From: a virus
Length of the DNA: 23,392 nucleotides
Reading direction: 5' to 3' (one strand)
Virus genome (UHGV): UHGV-1348655
Shown here: piece after piece, positions 2,833 to 9,344 of the stretch
Position numbering within the stretch: the first letter of the stretch is position 1
How the letters are laid out: every line of letters starts with the position of its first letter
Program-made: the position numbers and the translations under genes
Notes under the pieces: model-generated
Seen by the model: only the letters and a program-made list of their open reading frames with translations
What the model was told of the DNA's origin: nothing
The model's database searches: none

Positions 2833-3051
2833 ATGTACTTGACACTTCAGGAGTGGAACGCACGCCAGCGACGCCCAAGAAGCCTTGAAACAGTTCGTCG
2901 ATGGGTACGCGAGTGCAGGATATTCCCTCCTCCGGTTAAGGATGGAAGAGAGTATCTGTTCCACGAATCAGCGGTAAAGGTTGACTTAAATCGACCAGTA
3001 ACAGGTAGCCTTTTGAAGAGGATCAGAAATGGGAAGAAGGCGAAGTCATGA
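2833..3051 (+). CDS. xis: Excisionase Xis, lambda type, 72 aa
   Basis: Sequence MYLTLQEWNARQRRPRSLETVRRWVRECRIFPPPVKDGREYLFHESAVKVDL matches lambda Xis; overlaps the int start as in lambda. Confidence 0.9.
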   Translation: MYLTLQEWNARQRRPRSLETVRRWVRECRIFPPPVKDGREYLFHESAVKVDLNRPVTGSLLKRIRNGKKAKS

Positions 3052-4099
3052 GCGCCGGGATTTACCCCCTAACCTTTATATAAGAAACAATGGATATTAC
3101 TGCTACAGGGACCAAAGGACGGGTAAAGAGTTTGGATTAGGCAGAGACAGGCGAATCGCAATCACTGAAGCCATACAGGCCAACATTGAGTTATTTTCAG
3201 GACACAAACACAAGCCTCTGACAGCGAGAATCAACAGTGATAATTCCGTTACGTTACATTCATGGCTTGATCGCTACGAAAAAATCCTGGCCAGCAGAGG
3301 AATCAAGCAGAAGACACTCATAAATTACATGAGCAAAATTAAAGCAATAAGGAGGGGTCTGCCTGATGCTCCACTTGAAGACATCACCACAAAAGAAATT
3401 GCGGCAATGCTCAATGGATACATAGACGAGGGCAAGGCGGCATCAGCCAAGTTAATCAGATCAACACTGAGCGATGCATTCCGAGAGGCTATAGCTGAAG
3501 GCCATATAACAACAAACCCGGTCGCAGCCACTCGCGCTGCAAAATCAGAGGTAAGGAGATCAAGACTTACGGCTGACGAATACCTGAAAATTTATCAAGC
3601 AGCAGAATCATCACCATGTTGGCTTAGACTTGCAATGGAACTGGCTGTTGTTACCGGGCAGCGAGTTGGTGATTTATGCGAAATGAAGTGGTCTGATATC
3701 GTAGATGGATATCTTTATGTCGAGCAAAGCAAAACAGGCGTAAAAATTGCCATCCCAACAGCATTGCATGTTGATGCTCTCGGAATATCAATGAAGGAAA
3801 CACTTGATAAATGCAAAGAGATTCTTGGCGGAGAAACCATAATTGCATCTACTCGTCGCGAACCGCTTTCATCCGGCACAGTATCAAGGTATTTTATGCG
3901 CGCACGAAAAGCATCAGGTCTTTCCTTCGAAGGGGATCCGCCTACCTTTCACGAGTTGCGCAGTTTGTCTGCAAGACTCTATGAGAAGCAGATAAGCGAT
4001 AAGTTTGCTCAACATCTTCTCGGGCATAAGTCGGACACCATGGCATCACAGTATCGTGATGACAGAGGCAGGGAGTGGGACAAAATTGAAATCAAATAA
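3029..4099 (+). CDS. int: Tyrosine integrase Int, lambda type, 356 aa
   Basis: Near-identical to lambda Int from MGRRRSHERRDLPPNLYIRNNGYYCYRD to the C-terminal catalytic region (HELRSLSARLY ... LLGHKSDTMASQY). Confidence 0.95.
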   Translation: MGRRRSHERRDLPPNLYIRNNGYYCYRDQRTGKEFGLGRDRRIAITEAIQANIELFSGHKHKPLTARINSDNSVTLHSWLDRYEKILASRGIKQKTLINYMSKIKAIRRGLPDAPLEDITTKEIAAMLNGYIDEGKAASAKLIRSTLSDAFREAIAEGHITTNPVAATRAAKSEVRRSRLTADEYLKIYQAAESSPCWLRLAMELAVVTGQRVGDLCEMKWSDIVDGYLYVEQSKTGVKIAIPTALHVDALGISMKETLDKCKEILGGETIIASTRREPLSSGTVSRYFMRARKASGLSFEGDPPTFHELRSLSARLYEKQISDKFAQHLLGHKSDTMASQYRDDRGREWDKIEIK

Positions 4100-4330
4100 T
4101 GATTTTATTTTGACTGATAGTGACCTGTTCGTTGCAACAAATTGATAAGCAATGCTTTTTTATAATGCCAACTTAGTATAAAAAAGCTGAACGCGAAACA
4201 GCAAAAGACAATAATATCAATGTGTTACAATGCATTTAGTCTAAAAGATAGACTGCATAATGCTACAAAACACAACATATCCAGTCACTATGAATCAACT
4301 ACTTAGATGGTATTAGTGACCTGTAACAGA
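4100..4330. other. Intact attP (P' arm, 15-bp core 4173-4187, P arm)
   Basis: The core is the reverse complement of the lambda core GCTTTTTTATACTAA. The int-proximal arm (4100-4172) matches lambda exactly as I recall it; the distal arm (4188-4330) is homologous but diverged centrally and keeps CAGTCACTAT-type arm sites. Confidence 0.8.
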
Positions 4331-4377: not shown

Positions 4378-4671
4378 AACTCACTGGGTTAGTTGAATTT
4401 ACAACCATGCTCAGTATCTCGATAAGCGCAGAGAAATGATGCAGTGGTGGGCGGATTGGCTTGATGAGAAGGTGTCATAGGGAAGCAGAACAAAGCCTTG
4501 CAAACCGATGCAAAGCATTGTGTGTACCACGTTACAGTTAATGAAAAACAATCATAAATGTCAATGATGTACATCTGAGAACCACATGCATAAAACATGA
4601 TTTCATTGGCTGATCAGAAGCTTCTCAAGTGCTACACTATCCAAGTCTGTTTTCGTCACGGTTAACTGACA

Positions 4672-4709
4672 AACAGGGCCCCGGCTATGAGAGTAGTTGG
4701 GGCCCTGTT
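4672..4709 (-). terminator. Hairpin 30 bp downstream of the membrane-enzyme gene (candidate terminator)
   Basis: AACAGGGCCCC ... GGGGCCCTGTT, an 11-bp GC-rich stem; on the minus strand it is followed by TTTGTCAGTT. Confidence 0.5.
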
Positions 4710-4739: not shown

Positions 4740-6197
4740 TTATTGCATGATATCTTTTGAAGACAACCCGTTTACAATTGGATTATATTGATAAAGCTTT
4801 TTGTCATATGACATTATCATTGGGTTATCATTTTCTTTAGAAAAAATATCATAGTTATCTATTGTTAAATTTGTCTTGACACCAATCCATGAAGCAAAAA
4901 AGTCAATAAAATGCTTGGCGCTTCTAGTTGTATCTGCCATTGTTGTTTCTTTGTCATCGCTAGAGGCAACAAAAAATGGAACTTGGTATGATTGTTTTTT
5001 TGATGCATCTCTTCTTACCTTATAACCATTGCCATCTTTAATCATATTTAATCCATGATCTGAAAAATACACCATGGAAAATGATTCACCAGAATCCTCA
5101 AGATATGTATATATATCCTTAATGAAATCATCTGTTTTGTTGTAAGTTGAAAGGTAGCAATTAACAACCCTGCCACTTTTTGTTTTATATTTTATTGGAT
5201 AATCAAACAATCGATCGCAAGGATATTCATGAGATCCAACAATATGAACAAATATAACTTTTCTTTCTTTTAGTTTTATCTTCTCTTTTATTACTGGAAG
5301 CAATCCGAAGTCATCAGCCTTGTTAAAATATTTAAATTTCGCATAGTTAGATATTCTGCTTGATGCAATATTATACTGCCCTGAATAACCTTGTGATGAT
5401 ATCCAAAAAGTATTAAGTCCAGCCATGTTTGCTAGCTCAACAATGTTGTCCTGCTCATAAACAGAACCATTATCACTTGTTTTAGACAGTATTCTTGGTA
5501 CGGCTAGAGTTGTGTTTATTGCTGTAGTTATATAATTACTAATGTATCTCTTGGGGATTGAGTCTATAAACGGTGTCGTATCTAAACTAAACCCATATAG
5601 CGACATGAAATCCTTTCTCATGGACTCACCAATAACAACAACATATGTATTATACTTTGGTGTAATCTTATTTTTTATCAACCAAGAACTTGCAGGAAGA
5701 TTATCTACCTGTAGGCTTTTATATTCCTTAATGATATCTGAAACCAACCCACCGAATATCATAAAGTAGCATGAAGATGTAATTAGTAGCAATGGGGTTA
5801 ATGTTATTAAAATTAATTTTCTTCTTATTTTTTTCTGTTCATAATTGAATGCATATATGATCGTGAAAACAAAAAGAAAAACTGAACAGACCATTATTAT
5901 TAAGTGCGTTGTTGGGATTGACATATGGAACTGTATTGTCTCGCTTATGTCTGTAGCAAGAAGTACGTCCAATAGTGACGGCTTTAATAGTCCTTTTGTT
6001 AGAATTGCATCTGGAATCAATACGCTAAGTAATATTCCAAAAATTAGCAATATAGTTCTTGGTATTTTAAACAAAGATAAAGAAAATAAAGTTATAAACG
6101 ATAGAAATAAAATTGATATATTTATGCTGCCAATTGCTATATATTGCATCAAATATGATAGCACAAAACTACATATTGCTATTAATAACAACTTCAC
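4740..6197 (-). CDS. Inner-membrane sulfatase-superfamily enzyme, phosphoethanolamine-transferase-like (EptA/MCR/YhbX-type), 485 aa
   Basis: GTG start at 6197 with AGAGGA 8 nt upstream. About five hydrophobic helices in the first ~160 residues, then a soluble domain with motifs VVVIGESMRKD, VHIVGSHEYP and YFSDHG that resemble the metal and nucleophile motifs of that family. The gene is visibly much more AT-rich than the phage backbone. Confidence 0.8.
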   Translation of the reverse strand: MKLLLIAICSFVLSYLMQYIAIGSINISILFLSFITLFSLSLFKIPRTILLIFGILLSVLIPDAILTKGLLKPSLLDVLLATDISETIQFHMSIPTTHLIIMVCSVFLFVFTIIYAFNYEQKKIRRKLILITLTPLLLITSSCYFMIFGGLVSDIIKEYKSLQVDNLPASSWLIKNKITPKYNTYVVVIGESMRKDFMSLYGFSLDTTPFIDSIPKRYISNYITTAINTTLAVPRILSKTSDNGSVYEQDNIVELANMAGLNTFWISSQGYSGQYNIASSRISNYAKFKYFNKADDFGLLPVIKEKIKLKERKVIFVHIVGSHEYPCDRLFDYPIKYKTKSGRVVNCYLSTYNKTDDFIKDIYTYLEDSGESFSMVYFSDHGLNMIKDGNGYKVRRDASKKQSYQVPFFVASSDDKETTMADTTRSAKHFIDFFASWIGVKTNLTIDNYDIFSKENDNPMIMSYDKKLYQYNPIVNGLSSKDIMQ

Positions 6198-6237
6198 TAA
6201 TACAGTCCTCTGTTAAGGAATATTAAATAGTGATGTT

Positions 6238-6243
6238 ATTATA
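6238..6243 (-). promoter_or_regulatory. Candidate -10 hexamer (TATAAT on minus strand) for the membrane-enzyme gene
   Basis: The minus strand reads GAGTATAAT about 40 bp upstream of the GTG start; the -35 element is weak or ambiguous. Confidence 0.3.
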
Positions 6244-6402
6244 CTCATTTTTTATAGTAATGAAAGATTCATTTTAAATGACATTCACATTTGATCGCCT
6301 TCTCCTACTGTAGGAGCGAGAAGGCGTGCTTAGTTGCTATAATTACTGGTGATGCTGCCAACTTACTGATTTAGTGTATGATGGTGTTTTTGAGGTGCTC
6401 CA

Positions 6403-6678
6403 GTGGCTTCTGTTTCTATCAGCTGTCCCTCCTGTTCAGCTACTGACGGGGTGGTGCGTAACGGCAAAAGCACCGCCGGACATCAGCGCTATCTCTGCTC
6501 TCACTGCCGTAAAACATGGCAACTGCAGTTCACTTACACCGCTTCTCAACCCGGTACGCACCAGAAAATCATTGATATGGCCATGAATGGCGTTGGATGC
6601 CGGGCAACAGCCCGCATTATGGGCGTTGGCCTCAACACGATTTTACGTCACTTAAAAAACTCAGGCCGCAGTCGGTAA
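6403..6678 (+). CDS. insA: IS1 InsA, 91 aa
   Basis: [43 protein letters not shown] is the canonical InsA sequence. Confidence 0.95.
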
Positions 6679-7100
6679 CCTCGCGCATACAGCCTGGCAG
6701 TGACGTCATCGTCTGCGCGGAAATGGACGAACAGTGGGGCTATGTCGGGGCTAAATCGCGCCAGCGCTGGCTGTTTTACGCGTATGACAGGCTACGGAAG
6801 ACGGTTGTTGCGCACGTATTCGGTGAACGCACTATGGCGACGCTGGGGCGTCTTATGAGCCTGCTGTCACCCTTTGACGTGGTGATATGGATGACGGATG
6901 GCTGGCCGCTTTATGAATCACGCCTGAAGGGAGAACTGCACGTTATCAGCAAGCGATATACGCAGCGCATTGAGCGGCATAACCTGAATCTGAGGCAACA
7001 TCTGGCAAGGCTGGGCAGGAAGTCACTGTCGTTCTCAAAATCGGTGGAGCTGCATGACAAAGTCATCGGGCATTATCCGAACATAAAACACTATCAGTAA
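6597..7100 (+). CDS. insB: IS1 InsB frame (transposase is made as InsAB' by a -1 frameshift)
   Basis: Canonical InsB reading frame overlapping the insA 3' end; the A-run frameshift site lies in the overlap. Confidence 0.9.
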
Positions 7101-7127
7101 GTTGGAGTCATTACCTAATTACTTAAT

Positions 7128-8948
7128 CTATTTTATTGACAGAACGCCAGATAAGGATATTTGTCTAGCAGAGCCAGATGATACATCTGTCCATCTGGCA
7201 TATCTTGTTGTTCCGTCGATGAAAGTTAATAAAAATTTAGCCGTGTTATCTGACACCACCTCTAAGGAAACATCATATAATTGTTTAGCTGAGTTTGCTG
7301 TAGCGTAGTAAAATGCGTACAGGCCACCATTAACTGTACCTCCAAATCCAGATTTAATGCCATAAACAGGAGCTATATTAACAATTACATCACCTGTTGC
7401 TGACGGTATAGCTGTTACTGTTGTAGCTATGGAAAAACTTAATGTGTTATACCATATTCCAGAGTTCAGAGTTTGGCCCGACATCGTTACACCAGCAGCA
7501 CTTGCAAGGACAGCTCCAGAGTTAGGTCCAATGGTCATTCCTGTACGCATTTTTTCAGCATATCCGTAGCCCGAGAAGTGATTACGAGCTATACCGGAAG
7601 CGCCTTCGAAAGATACCCAAAGATCTGTAGCATAATCGGGATTACTTACGCTAAAGTTATGGAATGAAGAACCCTGTGACGTGGTTATCATAGGTAACGT
7701 ACTTTTTCGAGGTGTGTCATTTTTAGACGCGGCAATAAGTACATCCGTAAAACTGGTATCCCACGCATCACAAATAAGCCCCACCCCACCGTTACTTCTA
7801 GACGGAACACTACCAGTGTTGCGCCTAACTGGAGTATCTAGGATTAAGTTAGAATACGAGGTGAAACCACCATTCTCAGTAACCCATAGCCCTACGTGCA
7901 TTTTCCCCATGACACCGACTAAATTATCTACGGTATTACCCCAAGGATGGAACTTATCTAAAGAGTTACCGGATTTAATAACCTTACCACCGTATGCGTA
8001 ACCAACTGGTGAAATCTCTGAATACCAGCCGTCCGTACATTTAATATGTAGGCCGATTGACTGGTCGGCTCGCGTATTTGCCACTACCATAGTGAATTTA
8101 GACGCTTTACCTTCGTAGCAAAATTCGTCCTCAAAACCGCCGTTGTTGAACCCAATTATTGCGCCGCCTTCGTATGTGTATCCGTAGCAATGTTGCACCC
8201 TAACGCCGATAGCGTTAATTCCTACCGTGTAATCCTGCGCCTCTAAACGCAAGCCGTAACAGTTAGTTTTGTTAGCTAGCGTAAAATGATCGGAGTTGTC
8301 GTAAGATGGGGTATCGGCACCACCATCCATTATATACGCATATGTTGAACTCAAACCGGCAGGAACAATTGCACGATGATTATTCCAGTAAACAGTAACC
8401 CCAGGCTTATGCATGATAGGAATTGTACTAAAAATGATGTCTTCATTCACATAAAGAACGCCGCCGCCACTTTCTGATATCTCAGTCATAGCTGCGTTAA
8501 ATGCATCTTCTCCTATTCCCCATCCGCGAAGGTCGCCTTCATCTTTCCATTTTTGTATAAGGGATGGAATAAGAAAATAGCCATCAGGTCCAGCAAGAAC
8601 CTGTCTTAGTTGGTCAGGGTCATACTTCAGCACATTCGGAAAATTAAACTGCTGCGCACCGTACGCATCATACACAGCCATAGAATGTCCTTGCACAGTA
8701 ACGAACTTGGCAATCTGTCCGTTATATACCGGATATCCAGCAGCGTTAATGATGATTGGTTGCGAAACAGGAACGTGAGAACCGTCTTCGTTCTCCACAT
8801 AAACCTGAATCTGGTTTTCAGGATTTACAGGGTCAGTGTCAATTTTACCGATATAAATTTTGCCATTGGCTACGGCTTTAAAAGAACGCGCCATAGTGAA
8901 GAGTTGCGAAGGCATCGATACGATCACATTGGCTGTAATGTCTGTCAT
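7128..8948 (-). CDS. Tailspike protein, 606 aa: P22-type N-terminal head-binding domain plus a divergent receptor-binding domain
   Basis: The N-terminus [46 protein letters not shown] ... VLKYDPDQ matches the P22/Sf6 tailspike head-binding domain; the remainder is unrelated to P22 gp9. GGAG lies 8 nt upstream of the ATG. Confidence 0.85.
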
Positions 8949-9080
8949 TTAATTTGCTCCAGATACAATGAATCGCCGCAGCGTGGCCACGGTTGGTATT
9001 TGTTGCATACCGAAACGGTACGATTGTTGATTTGTACAGTAGGTTTTACGATGCCATTCCACCCATTTGGTGAGGCATTG

Positions 9081-9344
9081 ATGATGTACAGCAAATACGA
9101 TGAGGCGCAGTTCCACTTGAGGCTTACGCACGAGTTGCACGCTAAGATTAAGCAGCGTGCAAAAATGAATAACAGGTCGCTGAACTCAGAGATAATTGCA
9201 GCGATTGAAGAATCATTGGATAAACAAAGCTCTGCATCAGTTTACATTGACGATGCAGAGCGTATGGCAGAACAACAATCCGATATGGTAAAGAAAATTG
9301 TCTTTGATACGCTCAAAGAGCTATATAAAAAAGACAGCAGCTAA
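9081..9344 (+). CDS. mnt: Mnt-like ribbon-helix-helix repressor, 87 aa
   Basis: The track ORF 8610..9344 is over-extended; the real start is ATG 9081 with GGTGAGG upstream. The C-terminus ERMAEQQSDMVKKIVFDTLKELYKK matches P22 Mnt (ERLADEQSELVKKMVFDTLKDLYKK as I recall it). It is transcribed divergently from the late operon, as in P22 immI. Confidence 0.75.
   Translation: MMYSKYDEAQFHLRLTHELHAKIKQRAKMNNRSLNSEIIAAIEESLDKQSSASVYIDDAERMAEQQSDMVKKIVFDTLKELYKKDSS

Follow-up and report, generated by a model that had tools for sequence, protein, structure and literature searches.

A P22-like tailspike with an uncharacterised receptor-binding domain and a phosphoethanolamine-transferase-type gene in its conversion slot: a candidate cassette for reading and rewriting one surface glycan

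Modular tailspikes and the conversion of the O-antigen by prophages have long been textbook matter. The slot next to the tailspike gene in P22 and Sf6 holds modifiers of the O-antigen, gtrABC being a known system for glucosylation of the O-unit, and neuO of phage CUS-3 modifies the K1 capsule; for the cassettes of all three phages, it is established that the modifier acts on the very glycan that the tailspike reads. On the other hand, only one serotype conversion by addition of phosphoethanolamine (PEtN) to the O-antigen has been documented in enterobacteria, that by the Shigella flexneri enzyme Lpt-O (Opt) encoded on plasmid pSFxv_2 (PMC3458804). The stretch of DNA analysed here, the 23,392 nucleotides of virus genome UHGV-1348655 (the window), carries a P22-like tailspike gene at positions 7128-8948 on the minus strand and, beyond a complete copy of the insertion sequence IS1, a gene at 4740-6197 on the same strand for an inner-membrane enzyme of the PEtN-transferase family. 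The best-supported conclusion from comparing its sequence with those of related prophages is that the receptor-binding domain (RBD) of the tailspike and the cassette downstream of it form a linked, exchangeable unit. Whether the two proteins also address one glycan, the RBD reading it and the transferase rewriting it, is a proposal to which we give about an even chance.

Central to this view is the comparison with sister P22-like prophages integrated at argW, in which the space from the tailspike stop codon to intS holds a gene of the Acyl_transf_3 family (oac), gtrABC or nothing. The acyltransferase gene is found in strain GPEC1292 and at 3/3 complete displayed places of the tailspike variant P0104, with a cut gene at a fourth, while gtrABC occurs in strain 30COLEC and wherever variant P0085 is displayed (8/8 places); three of these eight copies are intact, whereas several of the rest have a truncated gtrA or gtrB or lack it. 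The slot of strain MB06231 is empty. Each RBD subtype examined thus holds to one type of cassette, and the flanks of the slot are 92-99% identical among the sister prophages. Contig L118, for example, matches window positions 13959-7180 at 92% and 4707-4397 at 98.7%, and has oac where the window has IS1 and the enzyme. The right flank is a conserved stretch of about 100 nucleotides (4603-4707) with a GC-rich hairpin, CAGGGCCCC...GGGGCCCTG, at 4672-4707, which is likely the terminator of the enzyme gene. An earlier reading of this DNA, made from the sequence alone, had presumed a lysogenic-conversion setting for the enzyme, and the alternative occupants between shared flanks bear this out.

The same unit has travelled outside P22-like phages. 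In Hafnia paralvei (L123), a prophage of another type, with T7_gp14-like internal proteins and with holin and endolysin genes downstream, encodes a tailspike (P0080) whose RBD belongs to the same family (84% amino acid identity), followed after 154 nucleotides by the PEtN-transferase gene, with no IS1 between them. Its enzyme region and that of the window agree at 97.8% of 1,745 ungapped bases, and the junction reads as the window would with IS1 and one copy of its target duplication taken out. A prophage of that type in Citrobacter portucalensis (L124) has the RBD followed by oac; its tailspike (P0077) is 100% identical to that of the window over residues 151-390 and 451-480 and 93% identical over 391-450, and it aligns with the E. 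coli contig L118 in one contiguous block of 2,783 bp running from the start of the RBD through oac. The ~100-nucleotide right flank is 96-99% identical in the window, in the Hafnia prophage with its PEtN cassette, and in the Citrobacter and E. coli prophages with oac. Because both the Hafnia and the Citrobacter prophages carry the RBD together with a cassette, RBD and modifier appear to travel as one module, and the allelism of the slot, the two co-transfers and the shared right flank together argue for a functional link over chance adjacency. It was also observed that the 368-residue acyltransferase is 99.5-99.7% identical between the Citrobacter prophage and the E. coli P22-like prophages, one in an O91 host included (L124, L118, L018), while the neighbouring RBDs share about 70%; judged by these identities, the modifier cassettes look to be of much more recent origin than their companion RBDs, or to be exchanged more freely.

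In the window itself, the two genes are parted by IS1 (6348-7115, plus strand; insA and insB', 768 bp, PF03400 at E 3.9e-77), which begins 12 nucleotides past the tailspike stop codon, has terminal inverted repeats of 23 nucleotides and is flanked by an 8-bp target duplication, TAATTACT, at 6340-6347 and 7116-7123. The enzyme gene, described as adjacent in the sequence-only reading, is not strictly adjacent, since the complete IS1 separates the two. Between IS1 and the enzyme lies a leader of 150 nucleotides (6198-6347, minus strand) in which a hairpin, a TATAAT box and the ribosome-binding site AGAGGA, 8 nucleotides before the GTG start, can be read; a promoter would presumably lie at the TATAAT box. 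This leader is 97.8% conserved in the Hafnia prophage, where it follows the tailspike stop directly, and the intergenic distance, once IS1 and one copy of the duplication are subtracted, is 154 nucleotides in the window as in Hafnia, where the homologous site lacks IS1.

The IS1 junctions are the same in contigs L009 and L010, both of which keep the tailspike-IS1 junction, and six contigs with the exact enzyme share them. Those six begin within IS1 or at its left end (window 6344-6680), and downstream they cease to match the window at one of three points, which mark three integration contexts: 4169, at att-lambda beside ybhB and bioA; 4392-4397, with IntS at argW; and 4487, with another integrase. 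The join to ybhB and bioA falls exactly at window position 4169 in the sister contigs L004 and L006, which carry the same enzyme. Overall, the enzyme is identical in at least 24 contigs read (28 blocks in the index), over four integration contexts. Assemblies that contain it or a tailspike of the window type include GCA_050488465.1, GCA_036927065.1, GCA_966649305.1, GCA_038070795.1 and GCA_012993685.1. Contigs with the exact tailspike or enzyme break at IS1; the one long contig is L009 (530 kb), a deleted prophage near fliE in which the tailspike (99%; MGG4830156), the IS1 transposase and the enzyme (MGG4830154) are consecutive genes, and which probably ends near the start of the O-antigen cluster, as estimated from K-12 gene spacing. 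Since the junctions are shared despite three different downstream end points, the pattern is that of a single, early insertion of IS1 into the 154-nucleotide spacer, one that by this evidence predates the spread of the module in E. coli across prophages with different integrases. Wherever the enzyme gene was seen in E. coli, IS1 stands directly before it. Contig L122, considered as a further case of IS1 after an O91-type tailspike, was ruled out, as it has oac downstream.

The tailspike gene starts with ATG, ends with the stop codon at 7128-7130 and encodes 606 residues. The first 115 (8604-8948, minus strand) constitute a P22-type head-binding domain, the virion anchor. PF09008 (Head_binding) spans residues 1-113 over the full profile (E 2.6e-65, 218 bits), and all PDB sequence matches but one are head-binding domains of the P22/Sf6 type that end at residue 109-115 (E 1e-63 to 1e-44, with Sf6 gp14 1-115 at 1e-63 and P22 gp9 at 2e-49); the sole exception, 6tgf_F ('exopolysaccharide biosynthesis protein', E 9e-12), is a match to the N-terminal region only (query 8-129). 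The 5' end of the gene is 90-95% identical at the nucleotide level to those of HK620, CUS-3, N7 and other Lederbergviruses, up to nucleotide 329-348, or about amino acid 110-116. With Pfam, PDB and the nucleotide boundary in agreement, the division into about 115 and about 490 residues given in the sequence-only reading is correct, far beyond chance, and the protein is modular as that reading held, a head-binding domain joined to an unrelated receptor domain. The word chimeric, also used there, is true and in itself unremarkable, because Lederbergvirus tailspikes are normally so: P22 gp9, Sf6 gp14, HK620 gp9 and the CUS-3 endosialidase have the same N-terminal domain and a junction near residue 115, and the domain in the window is about 93% identical to that of Sf6 over residues 1-115, judged by eye from the alignment.

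The setting of the gene is P22-like as well. It lies downstream of gp7 (PF25688), gp20 (PF16928) and gp16 and is divergent from a Mnt/Arc-type repressor gene (9054-9344, plus strand; PF11423, PF03869), so that it has the place after gp16 and mnt, together with the beta-helix receptor class, in common with Lederbergvirus tailspikes. The window is collinear with L010, in which Pfam labels give P22 coat, gp4, gp10, gp26-type, gp16 and portal-side genes. Because the C-terminus (...SGVLSIK) and the length of 606 residues match the family consensus and its usual length, the tailspike is undamaged, and its truncation by the nearby IS1 is ruled out. The exact tailspike sequence was found in no record. 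On sequence grounds, then, the open reading frame is the intact tailspike of a P22-like (Lederbergvirus-type) temperate phage of E. coli.

Where this tailspike departs from those of P22, Sf6, HK620 and CUS-3 is in its RBD (residues 116-606; 7131-8603, minus strand), which has no sequence similarity to theirs, belongs to a small uncharacterised family and contains an extra internal recombination junction. The homology search that the sequence-only reading had proposed for the receptor part returns neither a solved structure nor a family: residues 116-606 have no match in Pfam or NCBIfam (the latter gives zero matches for the whole protein) and residues 130-606 none among PDB sequences. An AlphaFold2 model of the RBD, built on 27 homologues, shows a right-handed parallel beta-helix followed by a beta-rich C-terminal domain. 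Its mean pLDDT is 66.9; values per ten-residue block are mostly 70-96 for domain residues 11-300, with three blocks lower, and confidence is moderate to about residue 340 and poor over the last ~150. Foldseek places TSP2 of phage CBA120 at the top and HK620 and Sf6 lower, with every TM-score low and just 9-14% identity to known spikes in the structural alignments, and capsule depolymerases and uronate epimerases/lyases score as strongly as the O-antigen tailspikes. As modelled, the RBD is a generic beta-helix of the polysaccharide-depolymerase kind, in which O-antigen and capsule specificity, or hydrolase and lyase, are not told apart. Candidates for catalytic acids lie among the invariant RBD residues D191, E196, D256, D327 and E333 (numbered within the domain). 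The structure search suggested earlier therefore gives the class of the domain, and the fold has no power to separate O-antigen from capsule.

An exhaustive HMMER search of 1.84 billion representative proteins gathers only 24 clusters of this RBD at 50% identity and gives no link to a characterised family. The closer relatives, 69-99% identical, fall into three kinds by their N-terminal anchor. Many 606-residue E. coli prophage proteins have the P22 head-binding domain; others have PF18668, with or without a T7 tail-fibre N-terminus; and in proteins of Citrobacter, Hafnia, Yersinia and Buttiauxella the anchor has no Pfam match. Across these four genera and E. coli, the RBD is 70-87% conserved. 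It is present in 6 of 50,697 phage records, namely kuttervirus LPST94 (84% amino acid identity), kayfunaviruses pO91 (76%) and PH1061 (71%), ECO340P1 (73%), Hafnia phage Meifeng (69%) and an Aeromonas phage (31%). The tailspikes of the LPST94 (LPST94_00131), pO91, PH1061, ECO340P1 and Meifeng phages thus share the RBD family at 69-84% and, unlike that of the window, are mounted on anchors of the T7 tail-fibre or the Ackermannviridae TSP type; LPST94 and pO91 belong to virulent genera, and pO91 has no modifier after its spike gene. LPST94_00131 and the RBD-bearing phages are without a determined receptor (PMC10791037). TSP4 of phage AV101 (O8), considered as a guide to the receptor, was set aside, as it is absent from the tblastn matches and presumably resembles another LPST94 spike.

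The RBD is itself mosaic. Sliding comparisons of identity mark out residues 271-450 (7599-8138, minus strand), the distal two-thirds of the beta-helix, as a segment of LPST94/Citrobacter/Hafnia type: it is 97-100% identical to LPST94_00131, 93-100% to the C. portucalensis protein P0077 and 80-100% to Hafnia proteins (83-100% for P0078), and merely 47-77% to the tailspikes of E. coli O91 and O21 hosts. The converse holds for residues 1-270 and 451-606, which are 80-100% identical to the O91/O21-host tailspikes, save for one N-terminal window at 70% against 30COLEC. By these identities the tailspike is a three-part chimera with a second mosaic point inside the RBD, and residues 271-450, from the LPST94/Citrobacter/Hafnia lineage, are the part most likely to bear the binding groove. 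Since this central segment comes from another lineage, the predicted fine specificity may differ from that of the relatives in O91 hosts.

The enzyme gene is a low-GC moron (30.7% GC against 47.7% for the window) with a GTG start and 485 codons. Its product has a PF00884 sulfatase domain at residues 184-439 (E 1e-35), its PDB sequence matches are the catalytic domains of EcEptC, CjEptC, MCR-1/2 and NmEptA, and residues E191, T229, H323, D380 and H381, invariant in 19 homologues, align with the IGES, T, GxH and SDHG motifs of EcEptC, that is, with the metal ligands and the threonine nucleophile. Five hydrophobic segments resembling transmembrane helices fall within residues 1-153, and the AlphaFold2 model (pLDDT 88.5) is helical over residues 2-161; Foldseek finds EcEptC as the best match (E 5e-18), and full-length alignment gives a TMq of 0.61 to MCR-1 (9nww) and 0.57 to NmEptA (5fgn). 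On account of the Pfam domain, the PDB matches, the invariant residues, the membrane segments and the fold, the enzyme can be assigned to the PEtN-transferase type, and it looks catalytically competent. The neighbour had been read from the sequence as a candidate lipopolysaccharide (LPS)-modifying membrane enzyme, and these searches place it in the PEtN-transferase class of such enzymes.

Like EptA, EptC (CptA) and MCR-1, the enzyme has a five-helix membrane domain and a periplasmic catalytic domain with a threonine nucleophile and Zn-binding Glu, Asp and His; unlike them, it is prophage-borne and shorter (485 against ~540-580 residues), and it is only 16-21% identical to them. Like Lpt-O, it belongs to the sulfatase superfamily, resides in the membrane and is encoded on a mobile element with a neighbouring IS1; it differs in being of the EptA/EptC/MCR type, where Lpt-O is annotated as LTA-synthase-like and is plasmid-borne and without a linked receptor-binding protein. 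On pSFxv_2 too, IS1 adjoins the unrelated lpt-O gene (L017, 3336-4027). As with gtrABC of P22, oac of Sf6 and neuO of CUS-3, the gene has low GC and lies between the tailspike and the int/att region. Unlike those cassettes, it encodes a PEtN transferase of the sulfatase superfamily, not a glucosyl- or acetyltransferase, and is co-directional with the tailspike gene where theirs are convergent, with IS1 interposed.

The cluster of enzymes at 90% identity or more includes proteins of H. paralvei and Yersinia kristensenii, with full-length copies in both genera. The next relatives, at 48-51% identity, adjoin receptor-binding genes in four other prophages: a P22-like prophage with an unrelated tailspike made of a head-binding domain and an S74 chaperone, a Proteus prophage with an S74 spike, and two prophages in which the gene stands beside tail-fibre assembly genes. 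Remoter chromosomal homologues occur in Succinivibrio (43%), Haemophilus and other Pasteurellaceae (29-33%) and Photobacterium (32-39%), and a scan of GTDB species representatives yields only relatives of 48% or less in chromosomal contexts. The gene has 0 matches in 5,426 complete E. coli genomes, and its product no close match in the 50,697 phage records and none in IMG/VR; the open-access literature, when searched, yielded no account of a PEtN transferase in a prophage slot linked to the tailspike.

As to the glycan, three of the 5,426 complete E. coli genomes carry the RBD, and their O-antigen clusters, by RefSeq wzx/wzy, are O91 in GPEC1292 and MB06231 and O21 in 30COLEC. In the last of these (L021), the O21-family wzx is annotated as frameshifted (NZ_CP070930.1, 1777295-1778529); because the frameshift may prevent a normal O21 antigen, this strain is a weak counter-example to the association with O91. 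The two O91 hosts and the phage name pO91 point, by association, to the O91 repeat as the glycan of the RBD. This repeat is ->4)-a-D-Quip3NAcyl-(1->4)-b-D-Galp-(1->4)-b-D-GlcpNAc-(1->4)-b-D-GlcpA6NGly-(1->3)-b-D-GlcpNAc-(1-> (PMC10609480), and a published survey of Lederbergvirus prophage tailspikes holds none in O91 strains (PMC10408124). In Hafnia alvei, the O-antigen of PCM1216 contains D-Qui3N(3-hydroxybutanoyl), a rare sugar that is also found in E. coli O91, and that of PCM1222 bears PEtN on rhamnose, with no transferase assigned in the gene cluster (PMC4869667). The sharing of the RBD and the PEtN cassette between E. coli and Hafnia fits with these H. alvei antigens, which we take as a lead only.

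The mechanism that could connect these observations runs as follows. Residues 1-115 would dock the tailspike, presumably a trimer, onto the tail, and residues 116-606 would most likely bind and cleave the O91-type or a closely similar O-antigen, a target shared with some strains of Citrobacter, Hafnia and Yersinia. The RBD and the gene immediately downstream, be it an O-acetyltransferase, gtrABC or the PEtN transferase, form an exchangeable module, which is bounded on the far side by the conserved ~100-nucleotide hairpin spacer and has been transferred whole between P22-like phages and a podophage-type prophage unrelated to them. The enzyme, if expressed in the lysogen, would probably work on the periplasmic side of the inner membrane, with phosphatidylethanolamine as the donor, and transfer phosphoethanolamine to the polysaccharide that the tailspike recognises, so that the lysogen would be seroconverted and the adsorption or cleavage by phages with the same tailspike blocked. 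That receptor and substrate are the same glycan, as the sequence-only reading proposed, has gained real, if indirect, support from five comparisons (the allelism of the slot, the Hafnia prophage, the Citrobacter prophage, the constancy of cassette with RBD subtype and the contiguous block), all of them comparative in kind. Its further suggestion, that the chemistry of the receptor would identify the substrate of the enzyme, cannot be followed at present: the RBD family has no characterised member, and what it offers is the association with O91 and O21 hosts. The most specific form of the proposal, a self-contained 'read-and-rewrite' cassette bounded by the anchor/RBD junction and the conserved 100-nucleotide hairpin, swapped whole across unrelated podophage lineages and enterobacterial genera, and modifying the O91-type O-antigen in its PEtN version, seems to us a reasonable possibility and rather less than an even bet.

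Several observations weigh against a shared O-antigen target. Neither a receptor nor an activity has been determined for any protein of the RBD family, the central helix segment differs by 23-53% from the O91-host tailspikes, so that its specificity may differ, and one host, 30COLEC, is O21, albeit with its frameshifted wzx. Dep6 of phage PHB19 is reportedly an O91-specific depolymerase. It is absent from the RBD homologues in the phage collection, in which the inclusion of PHB19 itself is unconfirmed. The text of a 2019 review of E. coli O-antigens does not mention ethanolamine. With respect to the enzyme, the best NCBIfam score is 63 bits, whereas the cut-offs for EptA, CptA, EptB and MCR lie at 404-1100; by these scores it is a member of the superfamily and of no named equivalog, and with so wide a gap to each of the curated PEtN-transferase families, homology gives no guide to its acceptor. 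Membership of the Lpt-O family was rejected, the best BLASTP match to Lpt-O of pSFxv_2 being E 0.3 over 13 residues, although the two enzymes may act alike. A consensus promoter scan scored nothing upstream of the gene, with IS1 150 nucleotides away. In the Hafnia copy (GCA_024437935.1, 12297-13754), a premature stop at about codon 154 gives GGLV*DII where the window has GGLVSDII, and the annotation splits the gene into two fragments, of 293 and 313 residues; another H. paralvei genome has the full-length enzyme of 485 residues. Finally, the relatives at about 50% identity beside unrelated tail fibres also fit a core or lipid A acceptor.

This last point leads to a serious rival, kept alive by the uncharacterised RBD family and the substrates of EptA-type enzymes, namely that the enzyme modifies a conserved part of the LPS, the inner-core heptose or Kdo or lipid A, and that the slot is merely permissive. 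The gene would then be a fitness or defence moron that alters surface charge, resistance to cationic peptides or a secondary receptor. The structurally or biochemically known relatives EptA, EptC and MCR-1 all act on lipid A or core, the remoter chromosomal homologues resemble housekeeping genes, the enzyme has no homology to Lpt-O, and a place beside unrelated fibres or spikes in E. coli, Proteus and others, as seen for the 48-51% relatives, is expected for a target common to many hosts. Yet those same relatives fit modification of the O-antigen as well as that of core or lipid A, and a permissive slot does not sit easily with a cassette 97.8% identical in nucleotides behind the same RBD family on two unrelated backbones in different genera, allelic with the O-antigen modifiers oac and gtrABC between the same conserved flanks, in a position that in P22 and Sf6 is given to O-antigen modifiers. 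A conserved LPS acceptor is therefore, in our view, unlikely, though it has to be taken seriously.

It is more doubtful still that the pairing is without present function, IS1 or AT-rich silencing having uncoupled a modifier that is now a decaying passenger. The interposed IS1, the blank promoter scan, the interrupted Hafnia copy and the deleted, defective state of the L009 prophage would all accord with decay. They are met by a reading frame of 485 codons that is intact with all its catalytic residues and identical over the four integration contexts, by a leader that has kept its TATAAT box and ribosome-binding site, and by the full-length enzymes of Hafnia and Yersinia. The weakest alternative, that the tailspike targets a polymer other than the O-antigen (a group 1 or 4 capsule, the enterobacterial common antigen or an exopolysaccharide) and the modifier acts on that polymer, in the manner of neuO of CUS-3 and the K1 capsule, could draw on the unusual conservation of the RBD over five genera, on the equally strong fold matches to capsule depolymerases and uronate epimerases/lyases and on the O21 host, but is quite improbable given that an O-unit glucosylation system accompanies one RBD subtype at all eight displayed places, that two of the three complete hosts and the name pO91 indicate O91, and that the RBD, with three of 5,426 complete genomes, is rarer than a common antigen would lead one to expect.

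Beyond the tailspike and its cassette, the window joins a lambda-type integration module (2833-4187) to the P22-like virion module. In the former, lambda Xis (2833-3051; PF07825, E 3.9e-41) and lambda Int (3029-4099) are accompanied by the core of lambda attP at 4173-4187, TTAGTATAAAAAAGC, whose reverse complement is GCTTTTTTATACTAA; because this core is uninterrupted, the window is in the phage (attP) configuration and not integrated. Beside the lambda attP, about 84 nucleotides (4397-4480) are left over from the 3' end of an integrase gene of the intS type, and this remnant with the adjacent spacer (4392-4707) is 98-99% identical to P22-like prophages of the argW type. The presence of the intS remnant next to the lambda attP suggests that the int/att module was replaced while the end with the tailspike cassette was kept. 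The immI region is reduced, since there are no arc or ant antirepressor genes between gp16 and the tailspike. The early region encodes, at 1126-2127 on the plus strand, a protein of 333 residues with Ead/Ea22-like (PF13935) and DUF551 (PF04448) domains, and the open reading frames at 346-825, 822-1139 and 2127-2525 have no Pfam match.

Overall, the EptA-like PEtN transferase adds to the modifiers of the classical conversion slot a third chemical class, one without a close counterpart in sequenced phage isolates, and the comparisons offer direct evidence that a domain that reads the receptor and a gene that rewrites it are inherited together across backbones and genera. The RBD family, small, structurally unsolved and linked to O91, a serogroup of Shiga toxin-producing E. 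coli, supplies a candidate O91-associated receptor domain for Lederbergviruses; the newness of the PEtN cassette, of the co-inheritance and of this domain was judged against the open-access literature and the 50,697 phage records. If the O-antigen is indeed decorated, serotyping and the use of O-antigen-targeted phage or tailspike reagents would be affected for such strains, and the pair of tailspike and enzyme would make a clean system for studying the block of superinfection through PEtN. It would then be the first phage-borne seroconversion by PEtN, a previously unrecorded modification of the O-antigens of E. coli and Hafnia, and a case of PEtN addition to the O-antigen by a lineage of enzymes unrelated to Shigella Lpt-O.

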